A stretch of 38,203 nucleotides of DNA from Pseudovirgaria hyperparasitica (Eukaryota), in NCBI GenBank assembly GCA_010093815.1, contig ML996590.1; one strand, given 5' to 3'. Below the pieces are notes generated by a model. The model searched no databases. It had not been told where the DNA came from and saw only the letters and a list, made by a program, of their open reading frames with translations. Numbering within the stretch: position 1 is the stretch's first letter; every line of letters begins with the position of its first letter. Both the position numbers and the translations under genes were made by a program. This document shows, piece by piece, positions 5,454-37,674 of this stretch.

Positions 5454-5463
5454 NNNNNNNNNN
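5454..5463. other. Assembly gap (10 N)
   Basis: Run of n characters. Confidence 1.
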
Positions 5464-15003: not shown

Positions 15004-15020
15004 ATTATCCCTTCCCTCTA
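15004..15020 (-). promoter_or_regulatory. Polypurine tract (PPT) of Gypsy family B
   Basis: Plus-strand attatcccttccctcta reads TAGAGGGAAGGGATAAT on the minus strand, abutting the LTR start. Confidence 0.75.
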
Positions 15021-15560
15021 GAAAGCTACCCTTAGTAACCTAGATTATTACCTATCTCTATATCTCTATTCTAAGTCTTATAAGACCTTAGTCGTTCTCT
15101 ACGCTTTATCTTAGATACTTACTAATATTTGCCGATCTAAGATTTATATAAGTGTTTTCCTAATAAACTAGATTTTATCTATCTTAACTTCTTATATAGG
15201 TAAGATTACCTAATTAGGCCTAGCGTATCACGTAATGTAATTAGATAAGCCCGTGTACTACCTATATTAAAATCTTTTCTTAGAAATATTCCTTTCTTTA
15301 AAAAACTTCTTAACTCTTTATAGAGTTTTTTAGATTATTAGGTATATTACCCGATTCTTATAGATATAGATTTATATAGATTTACTATAATTTAGTATGA
15401 TTTACGTAATTTACTAATTTTTATACCGTCCTTAGCTAGTAATAATATAGTTCGTAATAATCTGTATAAATTAGTAATAATTATAATATAGTTTCCTAAA
15501 ATCTTAACGCTCTAAAGTAATCGGCGCGGAAATAGATATCTTTAAATAATCCCTATCTTA
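15021..15560 (-). mobile_element. 3' internal region of Gypsy family B copy 2 (left flank of the Plavaka insertion)
   Basis: Lies between the PPT and the left TIR and has a RIP signature. No pol motif recognised. Confidence 0.55.
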
Positions 15561-15586
15561 CATTAGGAAAGATACAGCGCTCCCAA
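15561..15586 (+). repeat. Left terminal inverted repeat
   Basis: Reverse complement of 37647-37672 with one mismatch. Confidence 0.92.
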
Positions 15587-15694
15587 GTACTCCTAAGTAC
15601 TCCCTAAGTATTCTTTCATCCCATTATATCTATCGGGCGGACCTACTTACTATCTATCCTAACGGGACGGCTTTATATAATTTATACTAAGTAT

Positions 15695-15832
15695 TCCGTT
15701 TATACCAAACGTCCCGTTTATACCGAACGTCCCGTTTATACCGAACATACTAGTTATACTAAACGTCCCGTTTATACTAAACGCACTAGTTATACCGAAC
15801 GTCCCGTTTATACCGAACGTACCGTTTATACC
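15695..15832 (+). repeat. Left subterminal 18-bp tandem array (~7.7 copies, consensus CCCGTTTATACCGAACGT)
   Basis: Read directly from the sequence. Confidence 0.95.
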
Positions 15833-15912
15833 AACGGGATAATTAGTACTAGTTGTTCTCTTAATACTAATTAGCTTACTAGTACTACTTATTTACTATA
15901 TACTAATCACTC

Positions 15913-18119
15913 TCATAGAATAAATAGTATATAGTATTTTAGCTTCTCTATCTACTCTACCTACTCTATCTACTCTATATACTCTATCTATTTTAATAGA
16001 AGTCTCTTTTCTAAAGTAATATCTTTATCTAAAGTATCTCTATAACTCTATATATCTTATTATTCTAAATTATATCTTTAGTATATTTAATTATAGTCTT
16101 TAAATTTAATACTAGAAAGATAGTATATAATAGAGAGTAGAGGTTAAAAATTAATTAGACTAGGAACTTAAATTAAATGGTACTATTCTAAGCTCTCTCC
16201 GACTATATAGCTATAATAAAATATAGTAGACCTTCCTTTCTTCTGCCTTTAGGCGGTGTCCTTTATCTATTAAAAGGTGTCCTTATCTAGAACTACCTTT
16301 GATGACCTTTTCTCCCACTAGACACTTCCCTCTATATTTCTAGTTACTATTTTTATTCTCTCTTATATTATCTATTCGGCCTCGTGGTAGTCTATATAGT
16401 TCCCTAGCTATATACTAATATCCGACTTCTCTTAAAAGTGTATACTCTTTATATATAGGTTAAAGACCCGACTTAAACGTCCGCTACCATCTAACTTTAT
16501 TTTAATTTAAGTATTAGTCGGGGTAGATAGACTACTAGTTAAGGTAGCTATAAGTAGGGATAATAAGTTAGTAATAGACTCATTTATACTACACGTATAT
16601 ATACTATTATTTACCGTTCCCGCGGTTACTTAGAGCGGGTCTATACTTAATACCTAAGATGGTATAATCTTATCCGTAGCCACTACTAGTGGTATAGAAC
16701 TCTCACCTATATCTAATGGCGCATGAGATGATTCGAGGTACTTATCTAACTAGTTTAGAGTATCCGACTTATCCTTTTCATAGTAGTTAGTATCTATATA
16801 GCCTCTATAACTTTAGTATATACTTATATTACCCGATAGCTTAGACTCCTCGCTCTTATCTAAGTTATCTATATCTACTTTAGAGAAGTTATCTAGGTTA
16901 TCTTTATATGGGTTTATATATATAGTATCCGGGTCGATTAGTATTAGTACTATAAATACTAATACTATTAGCGATTTTTAAATATAGTCGATGCGGTAGG
17001 GCGCCTAGTTCGACTAAATTAGGCTTAGCGCTCGTTATTCCTCTATATAATTTAGCACGCGATTAGATAAAGGTATATATATATACCTAGTATTAGTAGA
17101 GAGCGTGTAAATCTATAGCGACTAAAGGACGAGTTCGGCGCCCGCCCGCTACTATATTCGTTAAGGGCATGCCTTATTATAATATATATAATAGTAATCG
17201 TAGATGGTGGGATCGGTCGGAATATACTACTATAGTACTCCTTTAATCTAAGGAATCTTAGGGACTATAGTAGAACTAACTTTAGAGCCTTAATTACTAC
17301 TAGCCCTACGAACATTTTCTAAGTTACGCTAGTATTATACTAATAATTAGTAACACGTCTAACATGACGTAAGTAATATATCTTTACTCCTATATATGCG
17401 TTATTACGTATTAGATTACTTATACTAGCTTTTCTCTTCTCGGCTATCTCCTAGTCCTAGTATTCGGATACTATCTATCTAACTCTAGAGAGGAGTTAGT
17501 AACGGAAGTCTATTATATCTTCCTTTACTAGCGCAATAACATGGGCGGGAGGTGTGTTTTATGAATTATAATTAAGGTAGTAGCTACTAAGATTAATATC
17601 TCCGGCGGCTATCTAGGCTAATTATACTAGTATCCTAAAACTATCTAGGCTACTATCTAGCCATATATTAAGGCGATCGAATACCGGTAGTAACCGGCCT
17701 AAAAACGTTATAGCGATTAAAATCTCTATTATCGTAAGGTACCGGTCTCATTTATAAGGCTAGAGACTATCTCTATAGGACCGCCTCTTTTTATAGATAG
17801 TTAGTTCCCTCTCTACTACTATTTCTCTACCTTCTTCTATTAAGCTAGATGGCTAATATAGTAGAGGAGAGGACGTAAGGCCGTTATATCCCTAGTTACT
17901 ATTATAGTAGGATATTACCGTAACGTCTAAGCTATATAGGGTGTTACTACTATATTCGCTACCGGTATACCTAGACTACTAGGTTATTAGTAGATAAATG
18001 AACGCGTCGAGATAAGCTAGATATATATATATACGTTTTTTATGTCGATGGCTGTCGTGTAAGTCTCTATTATTAATGCTAATACGTGTCTACGTTGTAT
18101 CGTATCTTCGTTTACCTAT
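15913..18119 (-). pseudogene. DUF6532-like protein with acidic low-complexity C-terminal part (RIP pseudogene, boundaries approximate)
   Basis: Minus strand ~17320->17100 de-RIPs to MFAGPAVIEALKLVL...GVFRPIPPSTIAIVCIMMRHALDEYSSGRAPNSSF, matching my recollection of the DUF6532 pattern F.PIP...IAL....I..AL.EW.TG....F. GT..CTAAT..TAG intron at ~17340-17387; D/E-rich stretch at ~16840-16910. Confidence 0.65.
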
Positions 18120-18558
18120 CCCGTTTAGTTTACTATGGTTACTAGATTGTCTTCTATTAGTATTACCGCTACGGTAGCTAGATAGTCCCTTAACCGTCTT
18201 CCGTGTTAGAGGTCCTATAGAGAAGATATATAAGAGATTAGTAGATATTTTCATTAGTAATGGGTCGGTAACCTACTAGGCGATAATATTAGATAGCGGG
18301 ATAATAACTAGCTAGTAGACACGATAAAGGTTTAGGTGTAGACTAATATAGTGTTTTTATAGACGCGTGATGCTTACGCGTTATTATTAATAATTTTAAG
18401 CGAGCGTATATAGGAATCAAGGGGCTAAGAGCCGGGTAGAAGTCGGGGGTTAGTGGGTATATATCGGGCTTTCAACGGGCTTACACCTAACTTCTTCCGG
18501 TATACGCCTAGAATATCCGCCGTATACCGTATTATTACTATCTACTAATAATTATACT

Positions 18559-21500
18559 ATGGTATTTTTTCTTTATAGTAACTATACCTCGAGATGCTAC
18601 GGGCCGTAGTCTTCTACTAATACTATATTAGAAAGATTAGTAGTATATACTATATAATCCGTAGGCACTATAACTCGGAACCGTATAGACGAGCACGGCT
18701 TGCTATATTACTATTATTATTATAACCATTAGGCCCGTAGCTACTACTATCGACCGGGTTACGGCGCGGCTTTAGTACTCGTAGTTATATTAGTCGATAG
18801 AACTCTTTAGTTCGCTCTATTAGTATTTAGCCGTCGAGTATTAATCAGAAGTCTAAGCCTATAGAATTAGGTACTTCTACTACTAATATTACCCTATGTA
18901 AAGATACTACTATTTTCCCTAATCCTGTTTCGGACCTGGAATCTATGGACGGCGTTACTAGTAGCTATGGTACCGATTTAGTATATTAGTCTAATATATA
19001 TAGTAGAAATACTATGTCTATGGCGACGAGGGCGTCTAGTACTATATATTTAACGAAAACGTTCGAAGAGGAGAGCGGTATATATATTATAGTAGACTAG
19101 AGTAGACGTGATAATCCGTCCGACGTAAGTATATATAGTCTAGGTTTATAGTAGTAACTAATTTAGTAGGCCTAATTCGGTTAATTCGATAGTAAGTTTA
19201 TAGAGCGCCTTATAATATAGACGAATCGGTTTAGTATTTCGAATATAGTATACGATAAATTAACTACTATCCTTAAATAGACTTCCGCTATACCCCCCGA
19301 CCTTTTTATACTAAAATCTAATGTCGTGCGTAAGTAGTTATTATACTACCCTAAAGGGATACTGCACGAAAGTTAGTAGCGTAGCTGTGATATATTTAGC
19401 ACTACTATAGTCGAATACTAGTATAGGGATCCGCTTACGTTAGTGGAATTCCTCCTTAGATACTAACTATTCGCTAGTAAGCTCGTGTTTAAGCCGGTAC
19501 GATAATTTACTAGTTTAGGCGACCGGGTATATAGTAAAGCCTATATAGTAGATGGTTAGTAGGATATATACGCTACTATTCCGGATGGTACCGTCGTCGT
19601 CCCTATTATTTTATCTTCGGATAAGATAAACCTTACTAACCATGGTAGTAATAGAGTAGTATAGCTAGTCTATCTATCTATTTATAATCTACCACTAAAC
19701 GTCCGCTTATCTAGGAGTCTACTATTATTTCTACTACTTACTCTATTACTAGTAGTTAAGCTAGAAACGGTAGCGAATCGCTTTATGTTCCATTAGGTTA
19801 TAAGTAAAGTTCTAGCCCGTATATCCGCCCATGATAGAGTCGTTAACTATACTAATTATTATATAGCGTTATAGGCTATATAGAGTACTAGAGTATTAGT
19901 ATTATGTGCCGATGGCGGCTTATGTAAGTGCTATCCGCGTTTAGCTTTATATATTATAGATTTTCCGGAGTAGGTGCTTATCACGGGTGTATCCCATTAG
20001 TATATATATCTAATATATATAGTCCCTAGTAACAGACGATAGTATCTACGAGAAGCTATTACTAGTATATAGGAGTTCCGTATATACTCGTCGTTATAGA
20101 AATAGGTTTACCGTGTACGTCGCGAGTTAATAACTAATGGCTATAGTAGCGAGTATACTAGTAGTAAGATAGATAATAGGACGAGTGTACCTAGTATCTT
20201 ATCGTTTTCGTCGATATCTTTCGCGCTAGTAGTATAGGGCTATTATATTCGCTAATCGGTTAAGAGTCGGTATTCTAGTAGGTGGATAGAGCCATTAGAT
20301 AATTTTGCCTAGTTACTTACTAGAGTTAATATATACCGCGCGGTCGCTCCGGATATTCTACATTAACTATATAAGGGTATATTATAACACACGTTCAATT
20401 GGATAGTCTTATATATTATTAATTAAGAGTGTACGGGACATAAGTTAAAGGGTATATTTACCGGTATACCCCCTATAGAACGAGTAAAGAAGGCGATCGA
20501 TAAGCGATTCGCGTCTATTAGGGTATTCGGTCGTTATAACCTACTTAAGTATATAACTTTAGTAATATAATAGACGGGGGCGATGTTTAAGCGTATACTA
20601 GTAGTGTTTATAGTCGCGTTTAAACCGCTCCTATATCATGATTAACACTTCCTAAGCGTAGTGCGGGCGGTTATTAATATATGTATATTAGCGGCGTACT
20701 ATACGCATAATATATAGATACTAGCATACTTAGAAGAGGCTATATTACGCTTAGATAACCTAAAATACTAGTTTATACTATATCGTGGAGATAAATCGGA
20801 GGATAATTATTTTAACTTTCCGAAGTTCTATACATTATCGCACCTAGTTAATACTATTAAACACCATAGTTCGTTATATCTAATATCGGTAGAGCTACTA
20901 GAGCGATCTTATATCGTAGTAAAGGAATTATATTAAGGTTTAAATAAGAGGGAGACGTTTCTATAGTAGATGCTAGTAGTAGACACACGCACGATAAATA
21001 CTAAAATCTCTAGTAGTATAGAGGTAGCGGCTAGTACTAGTATATTAGTAGCCCCTGGCCTAGAGTAGCTCGATAATATACGTAAGCTAGTCGGCTAGCG
21101 GCGTATTCTAAAGGAGCCACGCTAGAGTAAATATACACTCTACGTCTTATAGAGCCATAGACTATCTACGTCCTACTAGACTACCATTAGCGACCTCTAC
21201 GACGTGTATAGTAGTAGTTTTATATTACTTGATACGGTTATACCCTTTATATATAACTATCGTAATCGGCTTATTAGGGATAATATATTAAAAGGTGCGA
21301 ATGTTAAACATATTAAAAAGGACCCTTCGTAGGCACGGGTCCTTTCTATCTATATATATAAGACCATGTACGTGCTAATACGACTAGATAGAGATATATC
21401 TATAGAGGCCTTCGACCCGATTTAGGTAAGGTATGCCCGTAACTAGTAAAAGAGTAGTAAGGCTAGGGAGGATTATATAATAGTATAGGAGTTTAACGAG

Positions 21501-21920
21501 GGTAGTAACTATCTTAACGGGAAGCGGGTTAGTAAAGTCCGTATATTTCTAGAGGTATACGATATGGAGAGCATTAACGTAACTAGTAGTATGGCGGCGC
21601 GATTCCTAGGTACGTTAGTTAAACTACTTAATAACTCGGGTAGAGGCAATATTAATACTATTAGTGGCCTTATACTATTACGTATAGCGGGTTAAAGGTC
21701 TAGTAATAAGACTTATATAATGGATAGGTTCCGTGTCTACGAGCTAGAGCATGTCCTACGCCCTATATAGATTATATTATATTAGTTAGTTACGGATAGT
21801 TTATTCTAGTTAAATACGTATAGTAATTAGGGGATCTATAATAAGGTATATAACCTAGACTTCTAGGCTATGAATAGACGAAACGTGACCGTAGCGTTAA
21901 AACACGGGCGCGTGTCGTAA
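18559..21920 (+). pseudogene. Plavaka-family transposase (RIP pseudogene; start uncertain, 18559-18945)
   Basis: One frame from 18945 to stop 21918-21920 with de-RIPed motifs YRDP; RVYSEAHTADGWW..VVVPIILSSDKTNLT..G...AWPVYLSI.NLP (SDKT ~19617); CADG..RKCYPRLALYIADFPEQ..CP.C.VP (~19845-20025); APDILHQLYKG (~20346); HFNFPKFHALSH (~20808); LNTYSDW..YNEVYDPDF. These are the motif series of fungal Plavaka transposases (PF18759). Confidence 0.9.
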
Positions 21921-22366
21921 GTCTATCGCTATCTACTACCGCCTACCGTAGTATACCGGCATATACCGGTATATAGCGGAAGTTATAGTTTATATATAGT
22001 AGTACTTAATAGTCGTATCCTATACTAGGATATCTCTAAGGAATAATCGTGGTTTATTACGATCGGTTCTATAAAAGGCTTATATTTAATAACTATCTAT
22101 AATTTTAGCTAAGGAGTATCTAGGGATGCACCTCCTTATTACCTAATAATTACTAGCTAGTATAAAAACTCTACGCCTCTAAAAGGGGTATATAGAACTT
22201 AAAGGATCCTTATTCACGGGTAGAACTAGACGCGGATAGTATTAACCTAACATAGATAGATTATATATATTAATACCCTGAAATCCGAACTATGTCTCTA
22301 GGTCTACTAGACCTAGCTCACACCCGATTCTAATGTTTTCGTTATTCGCGTTTATGCCTCGTTGGA

Positions 22367-22500
22367 TACCGGGCATATAACGAGTCTATAGTTAAGTAAG
22401 TATTAGGTACGTAACGAGTCTATTAATAAATGAGTACCGGGTATGTAACGAGTCTATGTAAATAAGTGTAAATAAGTATATACTAGGTATATAACGCTCT
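22367..22500 (+). repeat. ~34-bp degenerate tandem repeat (3-4 copies, core GG(C/T)A(T/C)(A/G)TAACGAGTCTAT)
   Basis: taacgagtctat occurs three times at ~34-bp spacing, followed by a partial fourth copy. Confidence 0.8.
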
Positions 22501-22739
22501 TACCAGGGAAACGTCTTCCTTAAGTATCTCCCCCTTCTAATATTTCTCCTTCTCTTTCTTTATTCTTTCTCTAGCCTTATAAGTATAGTTAGACTTATAT
22601 CGCTATATTATTAATGTGTACGTTCTTATATAGACCGTTAGAAACTACGGTAACTAGATATATATTCTCGTGATAGATAAATATACCGCACTAATACGTC
22701 GTATTATTCGTGTTTAATATAAGGGTTTACTACTACGAT

Positions 22740-23400
22740 CATTCGTCGTTACGCTCGTCTATCTCTTCTTAACGATAGTACTAATTAATAACGACCTATT
22801 ATAGAGATAATAGTTAGCATTACGTACTTCTCTTAAATATTTATATATTAATATTATATAAGTACATGCTTCGCGGAGGTCCTCTATCCTTCCCTTAAGC
22901 TATCTAGACTATCCCCTAATCGCTAAAAACTCTTATATCTAACTATTTCTACTATTTATTCCTCGGTTCTACTCGTTAGGCTTCGAACGATAGCGAACTA
23001 TAACGGGTTAGCGGTTATCTATATTTCGCGTACGCCGAGTTAGCATGCCTGAATATAATAGATGATAGTGTATTTATAATAGTATATACTAGATCTTATA
23101 GTATTTCTCTTTGGCGGTAGATCCACGTAGTCGTAAAGACGGCCTACTATCCTATTATACCTATATACTACGCTACTCTTTTATTATATATAGACGGTAT
23201 TACCGGAGTAGGGCTATCGCCCGGTAAACTTAACGTTATATATAGAGTATTGTGTATTTAACGTCGTTATTTCACGTGCCCTATGTTAGTGCGGGATCGG
23301 ATGCCGGCCGTATATTTCCCCGCCTCTATTAAATTAACGAGTTATTACCGAAAACTATACGGACTACTCGCGTTAATGTAGCCGTAACGTACGTGTTATA
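22740..23400 (-). pseudogene. Possible small intron-containing orphan gene
   Basis: Minus strand has fungal branch/acceptor signals (CACTAACATAG ~23282-23292; GCTAACCCGTTATAG ~22998-23012) separating coding-like segments. No domain recognised. Confidence 0.3.
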
Positions 23401-23479
23401 CCTACGCCTATTATATAGTATATATATCTCGTCTCTCTATTACCCTAGTAATATATACTATTCCCTATTCCGTCTACCT

Positions 23480-24333
23480 ATAGCTACGTCCGGCTAGCCG
23501 CGAATAAATAGCCGAGTAGAAGCGAGTCTCGACCTACTTTATATATTTAGAGCGTCCGATAGGTAGAAACTTCGGGTATATATAGAAGAGTTAATTTAGA
23601 AGGAATTTACTAGCCTATTACTAAACCTACGTAGTAAGGAAGTAAAGGACCACTATATAAAACAAGAGCGTTGCCTATAGACGGTCGTAGATAAATATAT
23701 ATTTATTAACGGTAGTTATACTATTTCACGGGTAGATACCATATATTAACTTAATACTATATTCTTGGTATTTACACGTAACTAGCGGCGGTTGGCTAAA
23801 TACCATTATATACGTTAAAACGATACCCCGGGCTAGACAAGCCGTTATAATGTTATATATACCCTACGAACCCGCCTAATATATCTAGCTAACCTAGTTA
23901 TTTAACCGTCGGACCACTAGTATCTATATCTCCTAAGGTAGCCGTGCCGCCGTGTTATATATGTATACCTATAGTCCTTATCCGCGATTATACTCGGGTC
24001 ACCCTAGTACTAATAACGGCCATATAGAATGGCACGACGCCGTTAAATATTAAGGGTATAAAAATACGCGATATAGTAGGTCTTAGTATAAATAAACTAT
24101 TAGAATTTATTAGCTCGTCTATAGATATACTAGGGGATGTAGGCGGTTATAGGTATGGTCGTGTCTACCTAGAGTACCCGATCCTACCGAGCGAGTCGAG
24201 TAATATAATTCTTTATAAGGATAGTTTAGACTAGGTATTATAGTAGACTATTAAATAGGCACTAGGCTTAGGACTAGATCGGGTGGTTTTCCGCGTGGGC
24301 GATATAAATAGTATATTTAGAAGCCTACTATAA
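23480..24333 (+). pseudogene. Orphan cargo gene 1 (helical N-terminal domain, linker, alpha/beta C-terminal domain)
   Basis: Coding-like frames whose stops are RIP-type TAA/TAG: MATSGQPRMNSRAEASLDLLCIFGASDRQKLRVYMEELIQKEF... and ...GRVYLEYPILPSESSDMIL.EDSLDQ.L...LDRVVFRVGD. One frame change near 23850-23940. Confidence 0.5.
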
Positions 24334-24599
24334 CGTATTAACTATAATCTAACCATATAGAAACGTCGCGCTATAAGTATAGTAGCGGGATTCATCCGTC
24401 TAGCGCGCGTAGGTAAGCTCGAGATATATATACGCCGATAGATATCGGCATATATTAACATATTACGACTACTAAGTGGTATATACCGATATATACCGGC
24501 ATATCCGGTATATACTAGTATAATACCGTCGCTCTTCCGTGGACATAACACTATTTATATATCTTAGGTTTTCGGTTATCGGTTACGTATAGTATTATA

Positions 24600-25320
24600 T
24601 ACACGGCGGATACCTTACTAGATTTAGGTCTTTCGTCGATAGTATATAGGTACGCCCTAGTCTACTTAATATAGGTATAGTCGACGCTTTACCTACTTAA
24701 ACGATAGACGTTAATAATGACGCGACTAGTATATTTACCTATTATATTATTAGCTAGCTAACGTTATATTAGGAGAGTCGAGCGCCGCCGTCCCGCCTAC
24801 TCTACCCGTCGATGTTAACATACTAGCGATTATAACCTAATCGCCTTATAAATTAATATATAATACCGGTATACTCGAGAGTTTGAGCGAACGTATAAAA
24901 GTCTAATATTATATACTATTTAGGGCCGGGGAGGAAGCGCCTACCGGCGTAGTAGTTATTAAGGCGATAGTAGAAGTCTATATATAACTAGACATACTAA
25001 GTCCGCCTCCTTCTTATGTGGTCCTATCGCTAGATAATATTACCGGTTTTAATATTATGGGAGAGGAGTTTATAGATACGAACCTATGAATATTAGTATA
25101 ATATCGGCTCGATAGTACGTATTATAGTATAAGGTAAGTTATATTTAAGCGGTAGTTAGACACGTGCGCTAGTATACTAATAGATATATAGTATCTCTAC
25201 CATGAATAGAATAGGCAAGGCATGGCTAGTAATATCTTACTACCTAGAAGAGATAGTTACCATAGAATTTAGAAGATAGGCTCGGCGTCTATGGCGTTAG
25301 TGTGTCGGACGGTTGAACTT
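24600..25320 (+). pseudogene. Orphan cargo gene 2 with two apparent introns
   Basis: Acceptor GCTAACGTTATATTAG (~24756-24772) and intron GTAAGT...CTAAT...TATAG (~25134-25190) flank a coding-like exon (GEEAPTGVVVI.A..EV...DIPSPPPSYVVLS.DDITGF). Confidence 0.45.
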
Positions 25321-25758
25321 TCATATAATACTATTTACTTATACCTATATTCACCTAAGCCCCGATTCGATAGCCTTCTATAATATACTATATACTTGGT
25401 TAGCGAGCTACTAGACTCATATAATAGTAGTATACTACCCTACTTTATATACTACTTAAGCTACTATTACTTTAGCCTACGTTAATCTTAGCTTCCTTTA
25501 GTCGTCCCTATATTATAAAAGAAAACTTCTATAAACCTTTCCTCTACTTATCTTGGTTTTTAAACCTAAATCTTACCTTCTATACTTTATTCCGTGTTAA
25601 TTACGACTATATATAAACGCTACATCGAACTCGACTCTATTAACCCTTAAGGTCCATTCTATATAATAGTTAACAAGGTTATATTTATAGTTCATAATAT
25701 GGATTAAGAACTCGTTATATTCGGCGATGTTTAGGACTAGTCTACGCTCGACGTAATT

Positions 25759-26082
25759 AAGCCTTACGTTTAAGCCGAGTCTCACGTTTAAGTCGAGCCT
25801 TATATTTAAGTCGAGCCTTATACTTAAGTCGAGCCTTACGTTTAAGCTAAGCCTTATATTTAAGTTAAGCCTTACGCTTAAGCCGATCCTTACATTTAAG
25901 CCGAGCCTCACGCTTAAGCCGATCCTTACGTTTAAGCCGAGCCTTACGTTTAAGCCGATCCTTACGTTTAAGTCGAGCCTTACGTTTAAGCTGATCCTTA
26001 CGTTTAAGCCAATCCTTACGTTTAAGCTAAGCCTTACGTTTAAGCCGAGCCTTACGTTTAAGCTAAGCCTTACGCTTAAGTC
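25759..26082 (+). repeat. 18-bp coding tandem repeat x18 (de-RIPed GAG CCT CAC GTT CAA GCC = EPHVQA)
   Basis: 18 contiguous units with no spacers, in frame with the helicase gene. Confidence 0.95.
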
Positions 26083-29000
26083 GAAGCTTATAATATAACT
26101 ACCGTCTTAACCGATAATAAACCACTCGTCTTTAGTATACTTACTAGTAACTACTATTCTAACGACGAGTATAAACTCAAGAAGGTCCAAAGTAGTAAGG
26201 CTCCCGTTCCTACTTATACTACCTATTAGATCTCTCTTATATAGAGCGATCTATAGTTAACCTTTGGGAATATCTATGGTATTAGTAGAGAAATAGATGG
26301 ACTTAAGTAGGAATAAGCAAAAACTTAAGCCGAGCTTAAGCTAGTAGTATTTAAGACTCGTGGTAAAGGTCACGGCTTCGAAGAGTCGATTAGTTATATA
26401 TATAGATTCCTTGAATTCCCTAAGTACCGCTCTTAGATTAAGTTACGTACTCGCTTCTAATGGATTAACAAAGGGAAATTAGTATCCTTAATAAGCTTAC
26501 TCCGCTTTAATCGTACTAATATCCTTCTATTATCCGACTACCCTACGGTATAGATCTTTAAGGTTAAGTAAGTAGGCGACTTCATCGAGTATTTTTCTAA
26601 ACTTCCTAATCTTATTATAAGTGAAGCGGATAAAGCTAATATACTATATATTAACACCGGCCTCTACGAAGACCCTCGCGACTTTTAGATTATCGAACTT
26701 ATAGCTAGCGAGCTTCTTAGTATAGGTTTTACTATTCTATTATATATCGGACCCGATATAATATATAAACGAGTAAAGTAATTCTTCGAAGATCTAGTTG
26801 CTTATACTATAGTTCGTATCTTGCTACCGCTACGTAACCCTATGGATCTTACCAGCTTTAATAATAAGCTTAAACTAGAGAGCGATCTAATTAATTCATG
26901 GTATATAGGAGTTACTACTCTCTATATATAATACGGCATAATAAGTAGGCCGGATAGTTGGCCCTAGATCTCTATTCTCCACCGCGAGTCATTCGATAAG
27001 AAATTTAACTACCTAATATATATTACTATAAGTACCTTGTAAGACGAATAGGCGGATCTCCCATTATTCTAATTCTAAGACGTTACTATTAGGTATATCT
27101 AGCTCTTAGGTGTTACTCGGGCGCTCTTAGCTATCGTCTATCCTATTAATGCGAAAGGATTCTATCGCATAGAACTAGGTAGTCGTAGGTACCTTAAAGT
27201 GGATTTAAAGGATTATAATAACGATACGTACCGCTTTAAAGTCCTTTAATTTCGCCTAGGCGTTCTTCTATTCGAATACCTCGCTCTAAAAGTCTTTAAT
27301 AAGGTTAGGCGTCCTCCTAAAGTACCTAAGGTACCGATTATATTAATGGATGCGGTTACTAATATAACTCGAGCTCGTCCTAAATATTTTATTCGGACTA
27401 GCGACACTAGTTTAAGTACGATTAGGTCGTCTCTTACTACGCTTATAGGGTTTATAGACGTTCCGGCTTTAGTTAGCGTATAAACCTACGATAAGCTTAC
27501 TAAGTAATATATTAATACGTGCTAGAAACTAACCTACCACGCCGTATAAGCTTCTAGAGACGGCGGCGTAGACGACTACGCCGCTTAGGATACGTTTAAT
27601 ACGATGGTCCTTAATATTATCGTAGACTTAGTGTCTATGTCTCTAATATATAGGTCCCCTAACCCTAACGACGAGATTCTAGATTATAGTATAGAGCCTT
27701 AGAATACTCTCGTTACTCTTTCTAAATTATCTATATCCCTAGATAATAATAAGGACACGAATATAGAATATAGTCACGATGTTATTAGCGACGAAGGTTC
27801 TATTACTAGCCCCGTCGCCGATATACATACACTTCTAATATCGTCCAAAGTCCACTCTAGTATTCTATCCCCTTTGCCACCCTCTATATAGGATCTAATA
27901 CTCGGTAATAACTATCTAAATCTTTAACCCGTCGACTACAACCGCTACGTTAAAGATTATGAAAGATTCCACGATCTCTAGGATATTATACGTTCGGAAC
28001 TATCTCCCTAATAATAGTATATCTATATATAGGCGACGGACGTACTTAGGGCTTAGTTCCTACTTCACGGCTATAGAGGAGCTAGGAAGAGCTATTTATA
28101 GCTTCGTCTACTACTAGCTATACTTCTAATTAATAAAATAAACGGTGCTTCTATTATCGCTTATACTACTAAGGTAGTTATCCTATCTAGCGATGTAATA
28201 GCGCACCTCCCTACGCCAGGTTCCACCTAAACATATAGAATATATATATATGTTATTATCGGCCTAACTAACGAAACCTACGACGACGCTATAAGAAAAG
28301 CATATAAATATATAAGTAATATATTTACTTACTATAAGTCTCTAAAGATACCGGTTATTCTTCGAAGATACCCCGAAGCCGTTAATTAAGAGGTTTTCTT
28401 TACTATAGCTAGACTATCTCGTCGCGGCGACCCTCTTATTAGGCCAACCTAGAACGATGTAATAGGCGGTACTATCCTCGCGTAAGCCTAGGCCGACTAT
28501 AGTAAACGACTATCAGAATATAGCACGGATCCCCGTGCTCGTCTATGGGAACTATATACCGGTTACGTTACGCTCGAGGTCGTTAGACTCGTTAAATCTC
28601 GATACTAATATAAATAGATCTCTAAGAATTTCGAGAAAGAAACGGCTCGGCTATTACGCGCTATCTATAAACGTTACGCTTATAATAAGGACATGCCTAA
28701 GAAGGAGTATAATAGGATGAACGAGCTATACCTCGCTACCTAGGACCTAGTTACTATCTACGCCTAGATTTATATAGGGACCCTATATGTTATGAATATC
28801 GCTAAGGTAGTCTATAATATATATCCGATTTTAGTCGTGATGGAAGAGGCTACGTGTATCCTTAAAAGTAATACACTCGGGATTATCGTTAATTATACTA
28901 CTATAGAATAGTAACTAACATTTATTTACGTCGGCGACCTACGCTAGCTCGATACCTACTAGCGTAATAGTACTAATATATAGGCCGCGAACTAGAGGAT

Positions 29001-30081
29001 CTCCTTTATAAAGCGCTAGATATAATATAGTTTCCTAACTACTCGCCTTACTAAGTTAGAACGCTTAGTTCCTAGGATAATAAACGTTATATCGCTAATT
29101 ACTTACTCGGGCGAGCTAACGACCTCGCCCCGCATAATGAATAATATTAATATACTACTCGTAGAGACCGTTTAATAAATATTTAGAATCCGCGGCTATT
29201 AATACGTCGTATACGCTAACATTAACGGGGATCACGCGCACATAGTAAATAACTTAATATATAATATAGACTTATTACGTTTCACTTAGTAGATTATTAC
29301 TAAGCTCTTCTATTATAGCGTTATACTCGATCACGTACTCTATATTTCTATATACGCCGCCTAACGTAATCTGTTTAAAGGGATGGTTAGGAACTCGCTT
29401 CTAACTACACTTACCGCAGTAGATAAAGCTCGATTTAATGCCCTACCTAAGCCGGTATAGAAGCTTGTCTAATGGCGTTCATGGGACGGTTCTTAGAGTT
29501 ATAATAACGATATAGTCCTTATTAACCCGGTCTAAACTAATCGCTTTGGCTTCCTCTCGGAAGTAAACTATAACGTTATTACTATTACGCGCGCTAAATA
29601 GATAATAGTTATTATTACTAACTTCGTATCTCTTAAGAGGTAGAAAGTCCTAGACGGCGTACTTGGCGAGATATAGAATAAGTACTCTAAGATTCATGCA
29701 ATATACACGTGCACGACCCCCGACCTAGATAGCCTCCCTCTACTCTCTAACATACCTAATCTCTAATATAGTCGCCCTATACTTAGTGTTAGAGAGAGGG
29801 GAGAATAAAGTAATTAATAAACTACCGATAGTACTAAGCCCTATAAGCCGCTGGTCTACCGTAAATATAACGTCGAAGGATATAAGTCTATTAAGTATCT
29901 AAGAGGGTCGACGCTTACATGTAATAACTATTAGGACATCGGCCATAAAGCTAATGTTTACTCTAAACCCAAGACGCTTACGGGTACGTTTTACTATAAT
30001 TATAGGACTACCGGTTATACTTAGTGTTATTATCCTAGCCGCACTAAATTACTAGCACGTATAAATAGTAATAATCCAGTT

Positions 30082-30165
30082 AATACTACTAGAGCTAATA
30101 CTACTAGAGCTAATACCACTAGAACTAATACTACTAGAACTAATACTACTAGAGCTAATACTACT
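30082..30165 (+). repeat. 15-bp coding tandem repeat (~5.5 copies, AATACTACTAGAGCT; de-RIPed about DATGA)
   Basis: Read directly; lies in the helicase C-terminal tail. Confidence 0.85.
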
Positions 30166-31180
30166 AACGAAGTAACTACTAGTAGCTAGGACGATAGAGA
30201 CTACGAGGATGCCGGCCGAGACGGTAGTATTATAATATATAAAGATATAGAAGTTAATTAGTAATAGTATACAATTAGACTTACGTGTTAGGGCTACTTA
30301 GTTACGGCTTCTTAGTAAGTATACCTCTATATCCATTTTAGATATAGTCATGACATCCTACTAGGTAGATAGTTTAGCTCTATTAAAGACCTATTAAGGG
30401 TATTTCTATTACGTCTACTCTAGTATAGACGCGCTATTAGATAATACGGCGCTACTAGGCATGTTAACTAGTACCTACTAATTAAGAAATAAACACGATT
30501 CTATATCTACCGCGAGCCCCGGCCTAATAACGTAGGCTTCCTTTAGTTATCCCCTTTATACTTTTAAAACTACTTCTAGTCTTTATATCGGGAGATATTA
30601 CCACCTAAAGAGAAAATATAAAAAAACATACGCCCTAATTAAAGCCTCTACCTTTAGACTTTAACCATGATATATACGGGATATAGTAAACCTAAATATC
30701 GCGTACTTTAAAAGTATGGAAGGATACGATACTTAAATACGACGAAATATAGGCTTATAATACTCGGAGAGTACCTAGGGATAAGCACATGAATATAAAA
30801 TAGGATAAGACCAATGTGGCACCTTATACATGTATGGCCATATACCGTTCTAGATGTAGTTACCTACGATATAATATTACGAGATAAGAATCATGGCTAT
30901 CTAATTCTATTAAGGGTATTAGACGACATGAAGTAAATAACTACACGCCCGACCACGCCACGCTAAGTTACATACGTGTTATAAACGCGTGTTCGAGGAA
31001 TAATAAGGATATAAATAAGGTTCACCTAGTAGGTGCCTCGTTATTCCGGCTTCTACCTCTATTATCCGATCTATACCTCCGTCTTCCTCGCGTCTATGAT
31101 ATACTACGTATATACTATATAATTAGTCTATAAATTATAAATACTATATTAACTATATACGTTAACTACATACGATTAAT

Positions 31181-32477
31181 ATATTAAATCCGATTCTATA
31201 ACAAAGTAACCGTCCGAATATAGTAATTACTATAGTACTACTTCGCATCTTAAGCCTAGATATATAAGTAAAGCGTGAAGCTATGGAGGCGCGTGTAAGG
31301 TAGCTATATATAGAAGTATATACGGCTACTCTACTCGTAGACCATAGACGTTAAACTAAGAACGAGCTTAGCGTAAAAAGAGCACGTGAGATTATTAATA
31401 AGGTAGCGGGCGAATTCCTAGTAGTATAGGAAAGAGTAGTAGAGTATATAGAGATGAAGGCGCTATACTATATCTACGACTAGGTACGCACTATAGTATA
31501 GAAAACCGTATATTATAGAAAAACTATCTCTAAGTGTAAGAAGAGGCGTGTAATTATAGCTCTATATCCTATGACCTTATAATCCCCGCCTATCACGACC
31601 TTATAACCTCTATCTATCGCGACCTTATAACCCCCGTCTATCACGACCTTATAGCTCTCGTATACCACGACCTTATAGTCTATACTCGTAGCGGTCCCAT
31701 AGCCTACTAACGTATATACTATAAGAAAAATTAAATTCATGATTAGATTCGACGATAACGCATTCCTTAAAATACTAGTACCTACGTCTAACTAGTGGAA
31801 AGACTATAGCGACGCTTCGTGTATTAATTTAGTAGTATTTATACGGCGAATTAGGGTCTAATACATAACGAAGACTAGGAGGGTACTTAACTAGAGCCGT
31901 ACTACCATGCATTCTATCGTGCTAGTAGTTAAGTATATAATAAGTAAAACGGAACTAGAGGTAGATATTAGATGGCTCCTATAGTTAGTAATTAAATATA
32001 TCCTAGAATATAGTAATAGTATAATACTCCTCGGCCTTAGATAGAATATAGATAGTATACCTAAAGTAAAACGAAATATAAACCAGCGACTAACACATGA
32101 TAGTATAGACGGCTATATATAGATTACGCTTGAATAAATCCGCCCCTCCGTCCCTAATACTACACTTGCTACGATTAGTATAATAATAGTAATAGAAAGC
32201 TACCGTCTACGATGGTAGAGATACCTACGGAGATGGTATTATAGGTAGTAGATAGCATTACCTAAACGACTTAACCCTTCCTCTAGCGATACTATATATA
32301 CTACTATCGGCACCCGGGAAGTCGCGAGACTAATCTATAAGCTCTAAAGATAGTAACTTCGAAAGCCTTAAAAGTACCTTAGATATAGAGGATATGGATA
32401 TCGCTTTTAAAGACTAATAGGATAATGAAAAGGGTGCTAGAGGTAGTGAGAGTGGCGTGCGTACTTGGCTAAGGTAA
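31181..32477 (+). pseudogene. Orphan cargo gene 3 (helical N-terminal domain, TTLQPPSI repeat linker, C-terminal domain, acidic tail)
   Basis: Coding-like frames MSNPI..NRPNAVIAMVLLRI....KREAMEARVRQL... and KIEFMIGFDDNAFLEIPVPTS.WKDY.... Branch/acceptor GACTAACACATGATAG at ~32088-32103; one frame change before the repeat. Confidence 0.5.
31571..31680 (+). repeat. 24-bp tandem repeat (~4.5 copies, core CTATCACGACCTTATAACC)
   Basis: gaccttata recurs five times at 24-bp spacing. Confidence 0.9.
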
Positions 32478-32818
32478 TGCGATCCGACGTAAGACGGCTT
32501 CTATCTACTATATATCGGTATATGCCCGATTCTACTAGCTATATAACTATGGCGTATATATTCGGTTAAGACGTTATAATACTAGTATAAGCCGGCGTCT
32601 ACCTAGTTCACGTCGGGATACGCCCGGTTCTACTAGCTATATTATTACTACGACTATAATCGTATAAGATCTACTCTAATAATTAAATATTTACTTATAT
32701 ACTTTACTTCCTCCGTACTTATTAAAATTACGTTATAATTACTAAACGCGGTAACTTAACTTCTACCGCCTAAATCTAGTTTTTATATCTTATTACCATT
32801 AACGCCGTCTTACTATCT

Positions 32819-35800
32819 ATGGCCTAAGTCGTATATAGGAATAGATAGGTATAATAAGAGTTACGACTATTCTAGTTTAACTACCGGCTATAGAATAGCT
32901 AACTATAATACGCATATACGACGTACGGAGGCCTTAAGCGTTAGCGCCCTTCTACCTTATATCTAGTACCTCTAAGGCCTATACCTAATACCCGAAATAA
33001 GTTATAATATATATAGGGCTACCATTATTAAGATAGTAAGTAAAGAAGTAGTAATAGAGCTTGAAACTAGTGGCATAGACACTACTATACTCTATAGGAT
33101 AGTTAAGGAAACCGTTACTAGAGAATTTAATTGGCATATCGCGGCTATAAATAGTAAGTTAGTACCGACGGTTACGACCATAGATATAATAGAGACTAAA
33201 CTAGATATAGATACTATAGGCATAGGTACGTAGATATAGTTACCGCTAGAACATAAGGAGAAAGATAATATAGAAGATACTGAAATGGAAGACGACGTAG
33301 CTAGTATGCTTAGACACATATATATACACACGGTCCTAGATACTAACATTAGAGTAGTATCGAATACAGGCGCGGTTATGACTACCGACATAGATAATCT
33401 ACCTATAAATATCGTCGTGCCTAGCGAAGCTTATCTACGCGTAAACATACTAGCTATAGAGATATAGTTATAGTTACCGCTAGAATATACGGAGAAAGAG
33501 AACGTGGAAGATACTAAAATGGAAGACGACGCAGCTAGTATACTTAGACACATATATATATATATATATGGTCCTAGATACTAATATTAGAGTAGTATCG
33601 AAGATAGGTACGGCTATAACTACCGACATAGATAATCTATCTATGAATGTCGTCGTGTCTAGCGAAGCTCATCTACGCGTAAACACACTAGCTATAGAGA
33701 TATAGTTATAGTTACCGTCGGAATATACGGAGAAAGAGAACGTGGAAGATACTAAAATAGAAGACGACGTAGCTAGTATACTTAGATATATATATATATA
33801 TATGGTTCTAGATACTAACATTAGAGTAGTATCGAAGATAGGTGCGCCTATAATTACTAATATAGATAATCTACCTACGAATATCGTCGTGTCTAGCGAA
33901 GCTCATCTACGCGTAAATACACTAGCTATAGAGATATAGTTATAGTTACCGTCGGAACATACAGAGAAAGAGAACGTAGAAGATACTAAAATAGAAGACG
34001 ACGTAGCTAGTATACTTAGATATATATATATATATATATAGTCCTAGATACTAATATTAGAGTAGTGTCGAAGATAGATGCGCCTATGATTACCGATATA
34101 GACAATTCCCCTACGAATGCCGTTGTGCCTCTAGATACCGGCGAGACTTATCTATAGCTGCTAGAAATAAAGAGGACACTCTCGGATAATATAGTAAACC
34201 TAGTCGATTCTCCGAAACGCCTAAAACTAGAATATATTATACTACTAGATATCGACTAGTAGACACGTAAAAACCAGGAACTATTCGGGTTAGTAGATAA
34301 TTTATATAGTAGATATATATCGGATAGTATATTAGCGAATAGCCTTAACTTTAAAATCCTTTCTATAGACGATAACTCTAACGGAGATGAAGTAAAGCTA
34401 GATATAGAGGACTTAATTCCGGTAGATAACGATGTTAGTACGAAACTATAGGAAGCGTAAGTTATACTAAGAAGTAAGTAGGAATATATACTACCATACT
34501 AATGTACCTATAGAATATTCGCCGTTAATAACTCTAATAAAGTAGTCTAAGCTATCTCTTATTATACGGAAGAGATGCGGTTACTTACTATAAGTATATT
34601 TAGGCTTGCGCTAGACGACCTAATAAAGGAGTTCGGCCATATACCTACTCTATATCTAGCCTTTAGTATAAGTGGGTTATATAGGCTATAGGCCGGCTAG
34701 TTACTCACGGTAGTTACTATGTTTAAGTAGCGGGCGGGTCTATGGAAGTACTAGATCTTAGTAGATAGCCTAGGGCTAGAGAAGATAATCGTGCTTATAA
34801 CGTTCATCCGCCTCGCGTTTTATTAGGACTTTCTACGCGATAACATAGAACTTAATCTAGGAAATTACCTATAACCGACTTAAGACTCGGGCATGGATAG
34901 GAAGTGCCTAATATAATCTCTGTATCCGATTAAATATCCGTGTAGCTAGACCAATGATTTTGTCTATGTGCCCCGCCTTTAAGGACTATTTATACTATAC
35001 TACCTAAGGTCCCTTCTAATAGCGCATTAGCCGTAGCGCTTTAAATAGATATATAACGATATAGATAGCATGTTTACCGATTAAATTAATAAACGGAACC
35101 CGATAAAGATAATAGTGCGGCTAGCGTACTCGAAAACCCTTACTAACGCCTCTAGTATCCGATAATTCTCGTATATAGACCGATAATACTTAGCTAAGAG
35201 ATGCCTACACCCCGAATGGGAACATAGCGTCGATATTAGTAATACTACTAAATTCAAGACCGACGAGGAGTATATTATTAGAGCATGGTCGATTCCCGTT
35301 AATAGAACCGCTACTACTAAATTTCCGTCGCGATACGCGAAGAACCATATAATCTATAGTACCGTCTAGAGTATGGAACCCTAATATCTTAAATCTTTTA
35401 AGGGACGCGTGGTTATAAGAGTAAAGAGAGCGAAATAATTTAGTACTAAAAATACTTAAACTCGCGAAGTAGTATTCCTTAGTATATTAATAGTAGACGA
35501 GTTCTATTCCGTAAAGAACCCCGATATAAAACAGTATAAATATACGATATATAATGCCCTTATATTTAGTATATAGGTTAGTATAACGCCCCTCTCGAAT
35601 AGTCTAGTAGATATTCTAGCGGCTATCGAGGTAGGTGCTCCGGATAAGTTACCTAACTATATTAACGATAATACTACTAAAAGGGTATTCGAGAGCCTAT
35701 AGAATAAAACTATAAGGAAGATTATTATAACGTGGTCGAATAAACTCCTTAGTTTAATAAAAGGTAAGCTGGTAGATACGATGGCCGCGATAGTCCGTAG

Positions 35801-36990
35801 GGCATTAGAAACCATAGAAGGTAAGCGTATACTACGTATGGTAGCCGATTAGTATTTACTATTCGTTCTATAACGGGAACTACTAACTAAATGGTTTAAC
35901 GGAGAGGCATGTCTATCTACGATATCAAAGCTAGTAGTAGAGTTTATATCCGTCCCGGCTATAGAACTAGAGAAGATAATTATACGGTTATACGAGAATA
36001 GAGGTAGATAGTTTAATAATCTATAGTCTAACGGAACGCCGCGGGACTCGTAGGTATAATCTACCGCCTAGAGTAAATCGAAAGGGGGTACCGGGTCCGG
36101 GCTTAACGTATACTACTATTAGGCTAGGCTAGCTACTATATATATACTACTTATATACCTTACTAATAAAAAGATAGAAGACGAGTAAATTAATATCACG
36201 CTTACGCGTCGGAGGGATAGTAATAATAGTATACCGAGTAAGATAATTACTAATCCCGTACGCGAAGCGCTTCTATAGCTAGATAAGGCTATGCGAAAGG
36301 AGATAGTATTACTAGCTAATAAACACGCTTCGAAGGTAAACTAGATCCGTAACTTTATTAATAATAACGTTTATAATGAAAGTACTAGACGCGCGCGACG
36401 AACATCCGCCGACCGCCTAGAGAAAATCGTACTTATATGTGCCGTACCGGCAAGCTTAATATTCCTATACTTAGTAAGTGTTTATACTATCTACTAGTAA
36501 CGTAATTTACTAATATATATAGGTACTATATCCATATACACAAGCGAAAATGTTAGTATATTTACTAGCCGGCCTAAGTACGTCCGAATTAAATAAGATA
36601 TATAGATTATTTAGGTCGACTAAGTCGGATTCTCTATATATTCTACTAGTATTAGCTTCGTAGGTCTGCGAAGGACAAGACCTAATAGTCGCCGGTTTTA
36701 TAGTATTAGTAGACTAATACTTACGTAAGGAGACGTGGCCGTAGGCAAGTATAAGATATTATCGCCATGGATAATATCGGCCTATAGTATATATATATAC
36801 TTTGATTTTAGACTATTTAGAGGTCGAGGCTAGACTCGCCGCGTTAGGTAAGGTAATCGAAAGCACGAGGACATAAGCCTTAGACCTAGAAAAAGGAGAT
36901 ATAGCTACGGTAGAGATAGCTATACCTAATATACTAGTAATAGGCGTATACTTTAATCCTATAGAGATATAGTAGCATAGAAGTAAGTAA
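32819..36990 (+). pseudogene. SNF2-family (SWI2/SNF2) ATPase with long acidic repetitive N-terminus (RIP pseudogene; ends approximate)
   Basis: Motif I ILADSPGLGKT (34755-34787); Ia L.CPRSL (~34995); II VDEFHSVKNP.T (35493-35530); III SATPLSNS..DI (~35580); IV EKIVL (~36420); V EGQDLT.A (~36670); VI QA..R.HRHGQ (36742-36774). GTAAGT..CTAAT..AG introns at 34457-34513 and 36474-36522 have lengths that reconcile the reading frames. Confidence 0.88.
33236..34130 (+). repeat. 234-bp (78-aa) coding tandem repeat, ~3.8 copies
   Basis: Units start atagttaccg at 33236, 33470, 33708 and 33942. The ORF-track peptides at 33285 and 33742 are fragments of two units. Confidence 0.95.
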
Positions 36991-37116
36991 GGTAGTCGGT
37001 TAATTAGCTTCTAAGAGACTAGATAGCATGGTAGTATAAATACGAACCGCTGTTTACTCGTGATTACATGTCTATATATATCTATACGTGAAGAGAAATA
37101 AGATATTTATTCTATA

Positions 37117-37436
37117 CCGTTATATAGTAGGACGTTACTATATATACCGGCATATAACGGAATGTTCCGACATGCGCCGGTATATTATAGGATATTCCTA
37201 GATACTCAAAGTATAGTCATAGTATAAAGTAGTATTACTATTATATGCCGGCATATAGTAGGACGTTACTATATATGCCGGTATATAACGGGATCATGTT
37301 CTAATATACTATACGCCGCCGGTATATTATAGAATATTCCTAGATACTTAAAGTATAGTCGTAATATAAAGTAGTATCGCTATACTATGCCGGTATTTAG
37401 TAGGACGTTACTATATATGCCGGTATATAACGGGAT
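37117..37436 (+). repeat. Right subterminal ~131-142-bp tandem repeat (2.3 copies)
   Basis: tagtaggacgttactatatat(a/g)ccgg(c/t)atataacgg at ~37125, ~37256 and ~37398. Confidence 0.9.
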
Positions 37437-37460
37437 TAAACGTTTTCTTAACGTTCGATA

Positions 37461-37640
37461 GAACGATTCTAAAAGAACCGGGACGGCTCTAGGAGAACTA
37501 GAACGACTCCGGGAGGACTAGGACGACTCTAGGAGGATTAGAATAACTCTAGAAGTACCGGGACGACTCTAGGAGGATTAGGACAACTCTAGAAGTACCG
37601 GGACCCATTTAGGATAACTTTAGAAGTACCGGGAGACCTA
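37461..37640 (+). repeat. Right subterminal 20-bp array (~8 copies, GGACGACTCTAGGAGGACTA / ..CTAGAAGTACCG)
   Basis: Read directly; abuts the right TIR. Confidence 0.88.
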
Positions 37641-37646
37641 GAAGCA

Positions 37647-37672
37647 TTGGGAGCGCCGTATCTTTCCTAATG
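37647..37672 (-). repeat. Right terminal inverted repeat
   Basis: Reverse complement of 15561-15586 with one mismatch. Confidence 0.92.
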
Positions 37673-37674
37673 TA

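Follow-up and report, generated by a model that had tools for sequence, protein, structure and literature searches.

One question raised by contig ML996590.1 of the fungus Pseudovirgaria hyperparasitica (NCBI GenBank assembly GCA_010093815.1) is how a gene for a Upf1-like superfamily 1 (SF1) helicase came to lie inside a cut-and-paste DNA transposon, and whether it served this element. The 38,203-nt stretch of the contig that was analyzed (hereafter the window, to which all coordinates refer) contains a 22.1-kb element at 15559-37674, which is bounded by 28-nt inverted ends and encodes remnants of a Plavaka transposase and of the helicase. It had been proposed in a first-pass annotation, made from the sequence alone, that the helicase belongs to the silencing-related proteins ZNFX1, Hrr1 and SAD-3. 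Judged from its codons, the gene is a Upf1-like SF1 helicase wrecked by repeat-induced point mutation (RIP), in which an N-domain, a RecA core whose Walker B motif reads E-E-A, and three C-terminal CCHC knuckles follow each other. We consider it rather probable that the stretch represents a RIP-inactivated copy of an accessory gene in a giant cut-and-paste transposon of the Plavaka/EnSpm type, in a fungus competent for RIP. By sequence comparison, the gene probably descends from a fungal family of helicases with zinc knuckles, here called the helicase-knuckle family, as a host gene that was acquired and rearranged by the element.

The helicase gene is read in one single frame over 3.97 kb (26098-30063, plus strand), on the same strand as the transposase and with no frameshift seen, and this frame continues to approximately 30264; the gene has a length of approximately 1,320 codons or more. 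It is interrupted by 71 in-frame stop codons (39 TAG, 32 TAA and 0 TGA), while 95 and 172 stops were counted in the remaining two plus-strand frames over the same interval, and the longest open reading frames (ORFs) overlapping 24-32 kb do not exceed 169 codons. From the limits of 25609-30264 that had been given before, the end agrees with our reading and the start is uncertain; an 18-nt tandem array occupies 25726-26139. The whole window is AT-rich with GC contents of 21-38%. The ratio TpA/ApT amounts to 1.65 and (CpA+TpG)/(ApC+GpT) to 0.25, for the helicase stretch as well as for the element as a whole, and such values indicate RIP according to the standard RIP indices. The following features of the gene and its direct surroundings were assigned.

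25726-26139, no strand: 18-nt tandem array directly upstream of the helicase frame (repeat family D1)
26098-28068, plus strand: N-terminal part of the helicase pseudogene, weakly homologous to the N-domain of the P0068/P0014/P0013 family
28069-28092, plus strand: Walker A, GYRGARKS (codon reading and RIP-aware alignment to P0003)
28840-28851, plus strand: Walker B, M-E-E-A, encoded by ATG GAA GAG GCT (unique exact match)
28927-29598, plus strand: motifs III-VI of the helicase core (AAA_12 on P0001 residues 988-1175, plus alignments)
29857-29898, 29920-29961 and 29992-30033, plus strand: three RIP-degraded CCHC zinc knuckles (codon reading and pattern counts)
30066-30181, plus strand: 15-nt tandem repeat giving pentapeptide repeats in the helicase frame (repeat family D10)

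The complete set of SF1 motifs that the first-pass annotation had reported is recognizable. Walker A reads G-Y-R-G-A-R-K-S and turns into GxxGxGKS on one reversal, AGG back to GGG; because this Arg codon is preceded by T, the change from GGG to AGG is one favored by RIP. Alongside Walker B, motif Ia (TN, 28261-28287), motif III (GDLR*L, 28927-28950, where the TAG is one C>T change away from the CAG of GDxxQL), motif V (WDGS*S, 29482-29499) and motif VI (TITRAK, 29545-29598) were found. The string PGST*T at 28216-28233, which appeared as a dead P-loop in a MAFFT alignment, was dropped; the RIP-aware alignment to P0003 puts Walker A at the position listed above. The domain AAA_11 was not detected by Pfam in the RIP-degraded helicase of the window.

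That the gene is borne by a transposon was upheld for the present copy, which lies between the inverted ends and together with a Plavaka transposase, whose coding region extends by eye over approximately 18.9-21.7 kb. These parts of the element are as follows.

15559-15586, plus strand: left terminal inverted repeat, TACATTAGGAAAGATACAGCGCTCCCAA, 28 nt, pairing with 37647-37674
15664-15870, no strand: left subterminal 18-nt tandem repeats (repeat family D3)
19401-19997, plus strand: part of the Plavaka transposase remnant with the best match (PF18759, E 2.6e-31, 109.5 bits with a cut-off of 26.3, P0009 residues 1281-1479)
37459-37618, no strand: right subterminal 20-nt tandem repeats (repeat family D11)
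37647-37674, minus strand: right terminal inverted repeat, 28 nt, 96% complementary to the left end

The termini read TACA...TGTA. Since the first and the last base of the element both stand in TpA context, termini of the type CAC...GTG, as known from EnSpm elements, are compatible with RIP.

The variation among copies of the gene was approached with contigs of two sequencing runs (X1 and X2) of one sample, which were aligned on 26140-30063 at a likeness of at least 80%. Pieces numbering 3243 (X1) and 1781 (X2) cover 30 of the 30 bins, whereby the summed depth does not equal copy number. Two further runs (X3 and X4), from a different sample with the same species label, contributed no pieces, which does not speak for an absence of the stretch. 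The differences in X1 comprise 43 A>G, 105 C>T, 85 G>A, 54 T>C and 1 G>C, i.e. transitions at 287 of 288 places, and neither insertions/deletions nor the classes A>C or A>T were reported among the contig pieces. Because many transition-diverged variants cover the entire interval, the helicase stretch is multiplied over its whole length as repeated DNA with many RIP-diverged copies. The present copy and every variant seen are RIP-mutated; the present copy is dead and its production of a protein is impossible.

The Walker B motif was of particular interest. As had been claimed, M-E-E-A is encoded by ATG GAA GAG GCT; the sequence ATGGAAGAGGCT occurs a single time in the window (28840-28851, plus strand) and matched in none of 100 shuffles. 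The surrounding residues read P-I-L-V-V-M-E-E-A-T-C-I-L-K-S, so the previously given context PILVVMEEA was found again, whereas the V-L-E said to follow it is obtained by de-RIPing ATC CTT AAA (I-L-K). A canonical DExx motif is not present; E-E-A-T stands at 28843-28854 and RIP-type reversals cannot restore Asp. The statement that GAA cannot have arisen from an Asp codon by RIP holds by the genetic code, because RIP-type transitions lead to GAA only from GAA, GAG, GGA or GGG. As the classes A>C and A>T are absent among the contig pieces, no appreciable share of the copies carries Asp as first residue of E-E-A.

It was this motif that had led to the suggestion of a ZNFX1/Hrr1/SAD-3-like RNA helicase, used against quelling or meiotic silencing or for the handling of element RNA. 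The window helicase and these proteins have the Upf1-like SF1 core and the Glu-Glu-Ala Walker B in common, and silencing roles are known for Hrr1 and SAD-3. According to the available part of a recent preprint, the Walker B of ZNFX1 is a deviant EEAA with a catalytic second Glu (E1007), and for the 1C insertion of ZNFX1 the nearest homologue by sequence is HRR1 of S. pombe, a protein with a part in RNA interference (RNAi) (bioRxiv 10.1101/2025.10.14.682297). The E-E-A is real and not made by RIP, which together with the missing Asp variants speaks for such an affiliation. We found EEAA in 7 of 7 ZNFX1 sequences. EEA is not an exclusive marker, since a family from Eurotiales has EEA in 14 of 17 sequences; hence, EEA alone does not define the ZNFX1/Hrr1/SAD-3 family. 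The members of this Eurotiales family (P0015-P0030; Penicillium, Aspergillus, Paecilomyces and Onygenales) comprise approximately 1,100 residues with a Upf1-like core and EEA[ST] in 14 of 17 cases, and by their sequences they could correspond to ZNFX1/Hrr1 in fungi.

The zinc knuckles offered a second feature. Three CX2CX4HX4C knuckles had been announced; the strict pattern yielded 0 matches in the six frames of the window, with only 2 of 12 metal ligands intact, and what stands is a triple site compatible with RIP. The sites read Y-x2-Y-x4-Y-x4-Y (29857), C-x2-Y-x4-H-x4-Y (29920) and Y-x2-Y-x4-Y-x4-Y (29992), and each of the 10 other ligand codons is TAT or TAC, one RIP-type transition away from TGY or CAY. 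Correspondingly, the pattern of zf-CCHC (PF00098) fits 0 of 3 sites when applied strictly and 3 of 3 when RIP is allowed for, and the Gly preceding the His position is kept at each site. A looser pattern, [CY]x2[CY]x4[HY]x4[CY], matched 18 times in approximately 76,000 six-frame residues; the helicase frame contains a cluster of three of these matches, at distances of 21 and 24 codons. Position 30025 is C in other copies, i.e. the TGT was CGT, so that the extra Cys of knuckle 3 disappears. Finally, the knuckle region aligns to the three knuckles of P0070 with a score of 75, compared with a null near 41.

The question to which helicase family the gene belongs was addressed by several kinds of searches. 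A phmmer search among 1.84 billion representative sequences gave five matches with E values of 2.4e-6 to 2.6e-4, all five of which contain AAA_11 and AAA_12; the best single match, P0002, is a member of the Eurotiales EEA family. A profile made from these five matches and the window found among the solved structures NAM7/UPF1 (E 2.6e-53) and also ZNFX1, SEN1, SMUBP-2, Aquarius and DNA2; the core is therefore Upf1-like, as had been proposed. The stop-masked translation gave 0 matches in a phmmer search of the PDB at E <=1 and likewise 0 matches in a word-indexed protein search, and profile hidden Markov models of the Eurotiales EEA family reached the second half of the window's core only, with 19.6 bits.

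Because RIP alters residues with a bias, a RIP-aware scoring was used, in which the window is compared codon by codon with reference proteins through a probability mixture over the possible pre-RIP codons; a plain maximum over ancestor codons was discarded, as the local-alignment regime was lost. Shuffled references gave a null of 41 +- 3.5. The highest scores were reached by P0003 (226), P0005 (222), P0014 (211), P0013 (193), P0068 (185) and P0006 (162), followed by the Eurotiales family with EEA Walker B (75-147), ZNFX1 (82-122), Upf1 (89-105), Sen1 (56-105), SMUBP-2 (93-98) and Dna2 (61). A search started from P0014 led to P0068, P0069 and P0070, all with zf-CCHC. Each of these three proteins has three strict CCHC knuckles near the N-terminus with a spacing of 21 and 19 residues (21 and 24 in the window), and P0013/P0004, P0014/P0005 and P0003, in which knuckles are not annotated, are members of the same family. 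The proteins P0068-P0070 show a canonical DEAA Walker B and a conserved N-domain; this family is unnamed and seems to be undescribed.

The N-terminal part of the gene points in the same direction. A RIP-aware N-domain profile of the P0068-type family scored 27.8 bits on the N-terminal 650 codons of the window, compared with 14.5 +- 1.5 for shuffled sequences (maximum 17.3, n=15), and the direct comparison of this region with P0068 gave a score of 64 with a null of 37 +- 3.4. No signal was obtained with the N-domain profile of the Eurotiales EEA family (13.8 bits vs 15.4 +- 1.6 for shuffled sequences). Moreover, in a quick maximum-likelihood tree of 37 helicase cores, which did not contain named Hrr1 and SAD-3 sequences, the window groups with P0013, P0014, P0068, P0069 and P0003 on a branch with a Shimodaira-Hasegawa-like approximate likelihood ratio (SH-aLRT) support of 98, while ZNFX1 and the Eurotiales EEA family appear as sisters (SH-aLRT 93). 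Taking core scores, tree, N-domain and triple knuckle together, it is quite probable that the window helicase belongs with the fungal helicase-knuckle family. Both have the Upf1-like core (AAA_11/AAA_12), homologous N-domains and three knuckles of the CX2CX4HX4C type, RIP-degraded in the window, of similar spacing in common, whereas the Walker B is DEA or DES in the family and EEA in the window. DE[AS] was found in all 8 helicase-knuckle relatives covering that region; hence, the E-E-A of the element would be a change of its own, convergent with ZNFX1.

In view of these results, a ZNFX1/Hrr1/SAD-3-like helicase in the service of the element appears improbable to us. Such an origin is favored by the sister position of the two EEA groups, by the best library match from one of them, and by the presumed anti-silencing cargo, TET/JBP, that other Plavaka and related elements carry according to the portion consulted of a published survey (PMC12730594). 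Furthermore, an approximately unbiased (AU) test did not reject the placement of the window with the EEA groups (p 0.068); in its free form, the phylogeny of the core that had been called for places the window away from ZNFX1. On the other side, RIP-aware scores, free tree, N-domain profile and triple knuckle all favor the DEA/DES clade, and the deduction of ZNFX1/Hrr1/SAD-3 affiliation from EEA was not borne out. The window helicase also differs from these proteins in that the large 1C insertion was undetected and the similarity is lower than to the helicase-knuckle family. Pfam detected neither NFX1-type fingers nor ZNFX1-family domains in the window helicase, where RIP damage could hide weak domains. 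Finally, the element family was not spared by RIP, a weak point against an anti-silencing function since RIP acts at the DNA level.

Returning to a gene from the helicase-knuckle family, the relatives give hints on its origin. They occur in clusters of 1-3 member sequences and look single-copy and intact, unlike the RIP-mutated copy in the window. A metagenome scan with P0068 found a 6.3-kb soil contig (L001) with an intact gene of 1174 codons at 714-4238, downstream of which Pfam matches below cut-off to fungal N-terminal signalling-type domains were noted; a scan with P0013 found no locus. The relatives thus look like a host gene family, which fits a capture by the element, in a sample of one locus. 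The earlier wording of a captured or diverged factor is reasonable in this regard, as the relatives look like ordinary fungal genes. In the process envisaged, the element would have taken up a host helicase-knuckle gene and rearranged its order by moving the knuckles from the N- to the C-terminal side. The protein of a live copy would then bind single-stranded nucleic acid through the knuckles and move along it in the 5' to 3' direction, as Upf1-like relatives do, and its substrate might be the element's own DNA intermediates or transcripts.

That the helicase served the element is possible, at less than even chances. The opposite case is neutral cargo: a helicase-knuckle gene of the host, as such or in a rearranged copy, would have been carried along without use to the element. 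CACTA-type elements often carry gene fragments, and the intact single gene on L001 with its transposase-free readable flanks, as well as the small cluster sizes, are in line with such a passenger. The altered order of parts and the replaced Asp of Walker B could both mean relaxed constraint. However, the gene was kept as a whole, with N-domain, all core motifs and three knuckles in one frame over 3.97 kb on the strand of the transposase, and no insertions/deletions were reported among the contig copies. Moreover, Glu is workable as catalytic residue in ZNFX1, as stated in the accessible text of the preprint mentioned above (bioRxiv 10.1101/2025.10.14.682297). Neutral cargo is regarded as somewhat unlikely. 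A more far-reaching idea, which we consider doubtful, is that a Plavaka/EnSpm lineage of ascomycetes recruited a working and selected helicase-knuckle factor. Among transposons of the DDE-type CMC (CACTA, Mirage, Chapaev) group, it would be the first to have its own SF1 helicase, which might act on transcripts or the small-RNA machinery and thereby aid spread or blunt RNA-based silencing, and the change from Asp to Glu might represent a convergent tuning of the ATPase rate as in ZNFX1.

Several observations weigh against the view of an accessory gene that came from the helicase-knuckle family and travels with a Plavaka-type element. First, regarding the element, its termini match neither the published PlavakaA ends (TGT..ACA) nor the PlavakaB ends (CATCA..TGATG) as given in the part of the survey at hand (PMC12730594), and a target-site duplication is not visible at its ends (flanks TCT vs TAT). 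The association of helicase and Plavaka is known from a single element in a single window; the further copies are covered by the helicase stretch alone, and they may or may not sit in Plavaka elements. Second, regarding the family, the only Pfam match of the RIP-degraded helicase gene is AAA_12 (E 5e-6, 26.7 bits), 0.3 bit under the cut-off of 27. The branch of the window in the tree is very long (4.4) and its composition odd, and in the AU test the tree in which the window was held with ZNFX1 and the Eurotiales EEA family is not rejected, with a log-likelihood difference of 17.1. The knuckles are N-terminal in P0068-P0070 and C-terminal in the window. Third, regarding a function, L001 shows no transposase over the 0.7 kb in front of the gene and the 2 kb behind it, so that the relatives might simply be genes of the host and the cargo neutral, and any record of past selection in the present copy has been erased by RIP.

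It might also be asked whether the helicase belongs to a separate mobile element nested within the Plavaka element. Tandem arrays are situated on either side of the helicase (25726-26139 and 30066-30181), and a 26-nt inverted pair with 85% complementarity (24505-24530 and 32570-32595) could mark the ends of such an insertion. This pair, however, is made of a CCGG-TATA motif that recurs in clusters throughout the element (22367-22457, 32490-32669 and 37044-37436), and between 22 and 33 kb neither strand has a long terminal repeat, second transposase, integrase or other Pfam match. Hence, a nested element is very improbable, and an accessory gene of the Plavaka-type element remains our preferred explanation. 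The clusters are built round TATACCGG(C/T)ATAT, partly palindromic, and are found at 22367-22457, 24488-24530, 32490-32669 and 37044-37436; by analogy with the subterminal repeats of CACTA elements they are possibly putative transposase-binding sites.

Besides transposase and helicase, the element contains further coding remnants and repeats.

17115-17552, minus strand: DUF6532-like coding remnant (PF20149, E 2.4e-7, 31.3 bits with a cut-off of 24, P0072 residues 2850-2995)
33208-34130, no strand: tandem repeat of approximately 236 nt in four copies (repeat families D2 and D4)
33540-36300, plus strand: possible further ORF remnant (translation P0012, few stops, limits by eye)

The DUF6532 remnant represents a second passenger gene, on the strand opposite to the transposase, and DUF6532 has no assigned function. 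The units of approximately 236 nt translate to a repeat peptide of approximately 78 residues, with frame shifts between the copies (spacings of 238, 234 and 236). For the ORF remnant at 33540-36300 no Pfam match was obtained and its antisense frame is equally open, which makes its status as a gene unsure. The six-frame Pfam scan of the element was done via stored translations and covered 15559-26100 and 30001-37674; on either strand it gave nothing besides the Plavaka transposase and DUF6532, and specifically no TET/JBP, methylase, SET or ParB-like match. The region in front of the element is of different character. Over 1-15558 the index (CpA+TpG)/(ApC+GpT) is 0.05, and positions 1-9000 are extremely AT-rich (GC 21-24%), with long direct repeats (2822-5453 vs 5589-8191, spacing approximately 2.77 kb) and reverse-transcriptase-like strings such as Y-I-D-N-I-V-V-F-S in the stop-masked translation. 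Judged from these sequences, 1-9000 probably consists of tandem or nested retroelement copies that are older or more RIP-mutated than the Plavaka element.

To our knowledge, giant DNA transposons only rarely carry accessory genes, and those described so far (TET/JBP, methylases and the VANDAL anti-silencing protein) target host silencing. As a passenger, a helicase whose knuckles bind nucleic acids would differ in kind from these, if it were shown to travel regularly with Plavaka-type transposases, and as a regular companion it would raise the question whether an unwinding activity is required by, or of advantage to, some cut-and-paste elements. Furthermore, our analysis brings out a still unnamed family of fungal helicases that have three CCHC knuckles. 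In practical terms, the locus can serve as a starting point for surveying fungal assemblies, with the present copy being dead and the association known from one element. A helicase as Plavaka cargo is not named in the Plavaka literature searched, as far as these sources were accessible and with Repbase reports, subscription journals and bioRxiv supplements outside the scope, and the same literature search gave nothing relevant on accessory helicases of CACTA elements in fungi or on helicases in Kyakuja, Dileera or Zisupton.

It is a weak premise that DNA transposons would not need a helicase. Helitrons combine an HUH nuclease with a Pif1-like helicase, and the AcademH lineage is reportedly helicase-encoding, as the title of a paper says. 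The window element is unlike a Helitron in having a DDE-type Plavaka transposase and a Upf1-like helicase with knuckles. Among Plavaka elements, the consulted sections of two reports describe fungal Plavaka and EnSpm elements with TET/JBP genes (PMC12730594), a 17-19 kb Plavaka with PAG1-3 from the red alga Bostrychia, and TET/JBP as the single accessory gene found in basidiomycete Plavaka (bioRxiv 10.1101/2025.02.11.637652). Compared with the giant Plavaka elements in these sections, the window element differs by its cargo, an SF1 helicase with CCHC knuckles and DUF6532, with TET/JBP not found by Pfam, and by its TACA... termini, which are not PlavakaA or PlavakaB ends, with no target-site duplication seen. 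That Helitrons encode a helicase is also stated in the part of the survey at hand (PMC12730594), and a DNA transposon with a helicase gene of its own is what Helitrons, AcademH and the window element have in common. With the giant Plavaka/EnSpm elements, as far as they are covered in the same portions of the two reports (PMC12730594; bioRxiv 10.1101/2025.02.11.637652), the window element shares the Plavaka-type transposase, inverted repeats at the ends, tandem arrays in subterminal and internal positions, a length of approximately 20 kb and the presence of several accessory genes.

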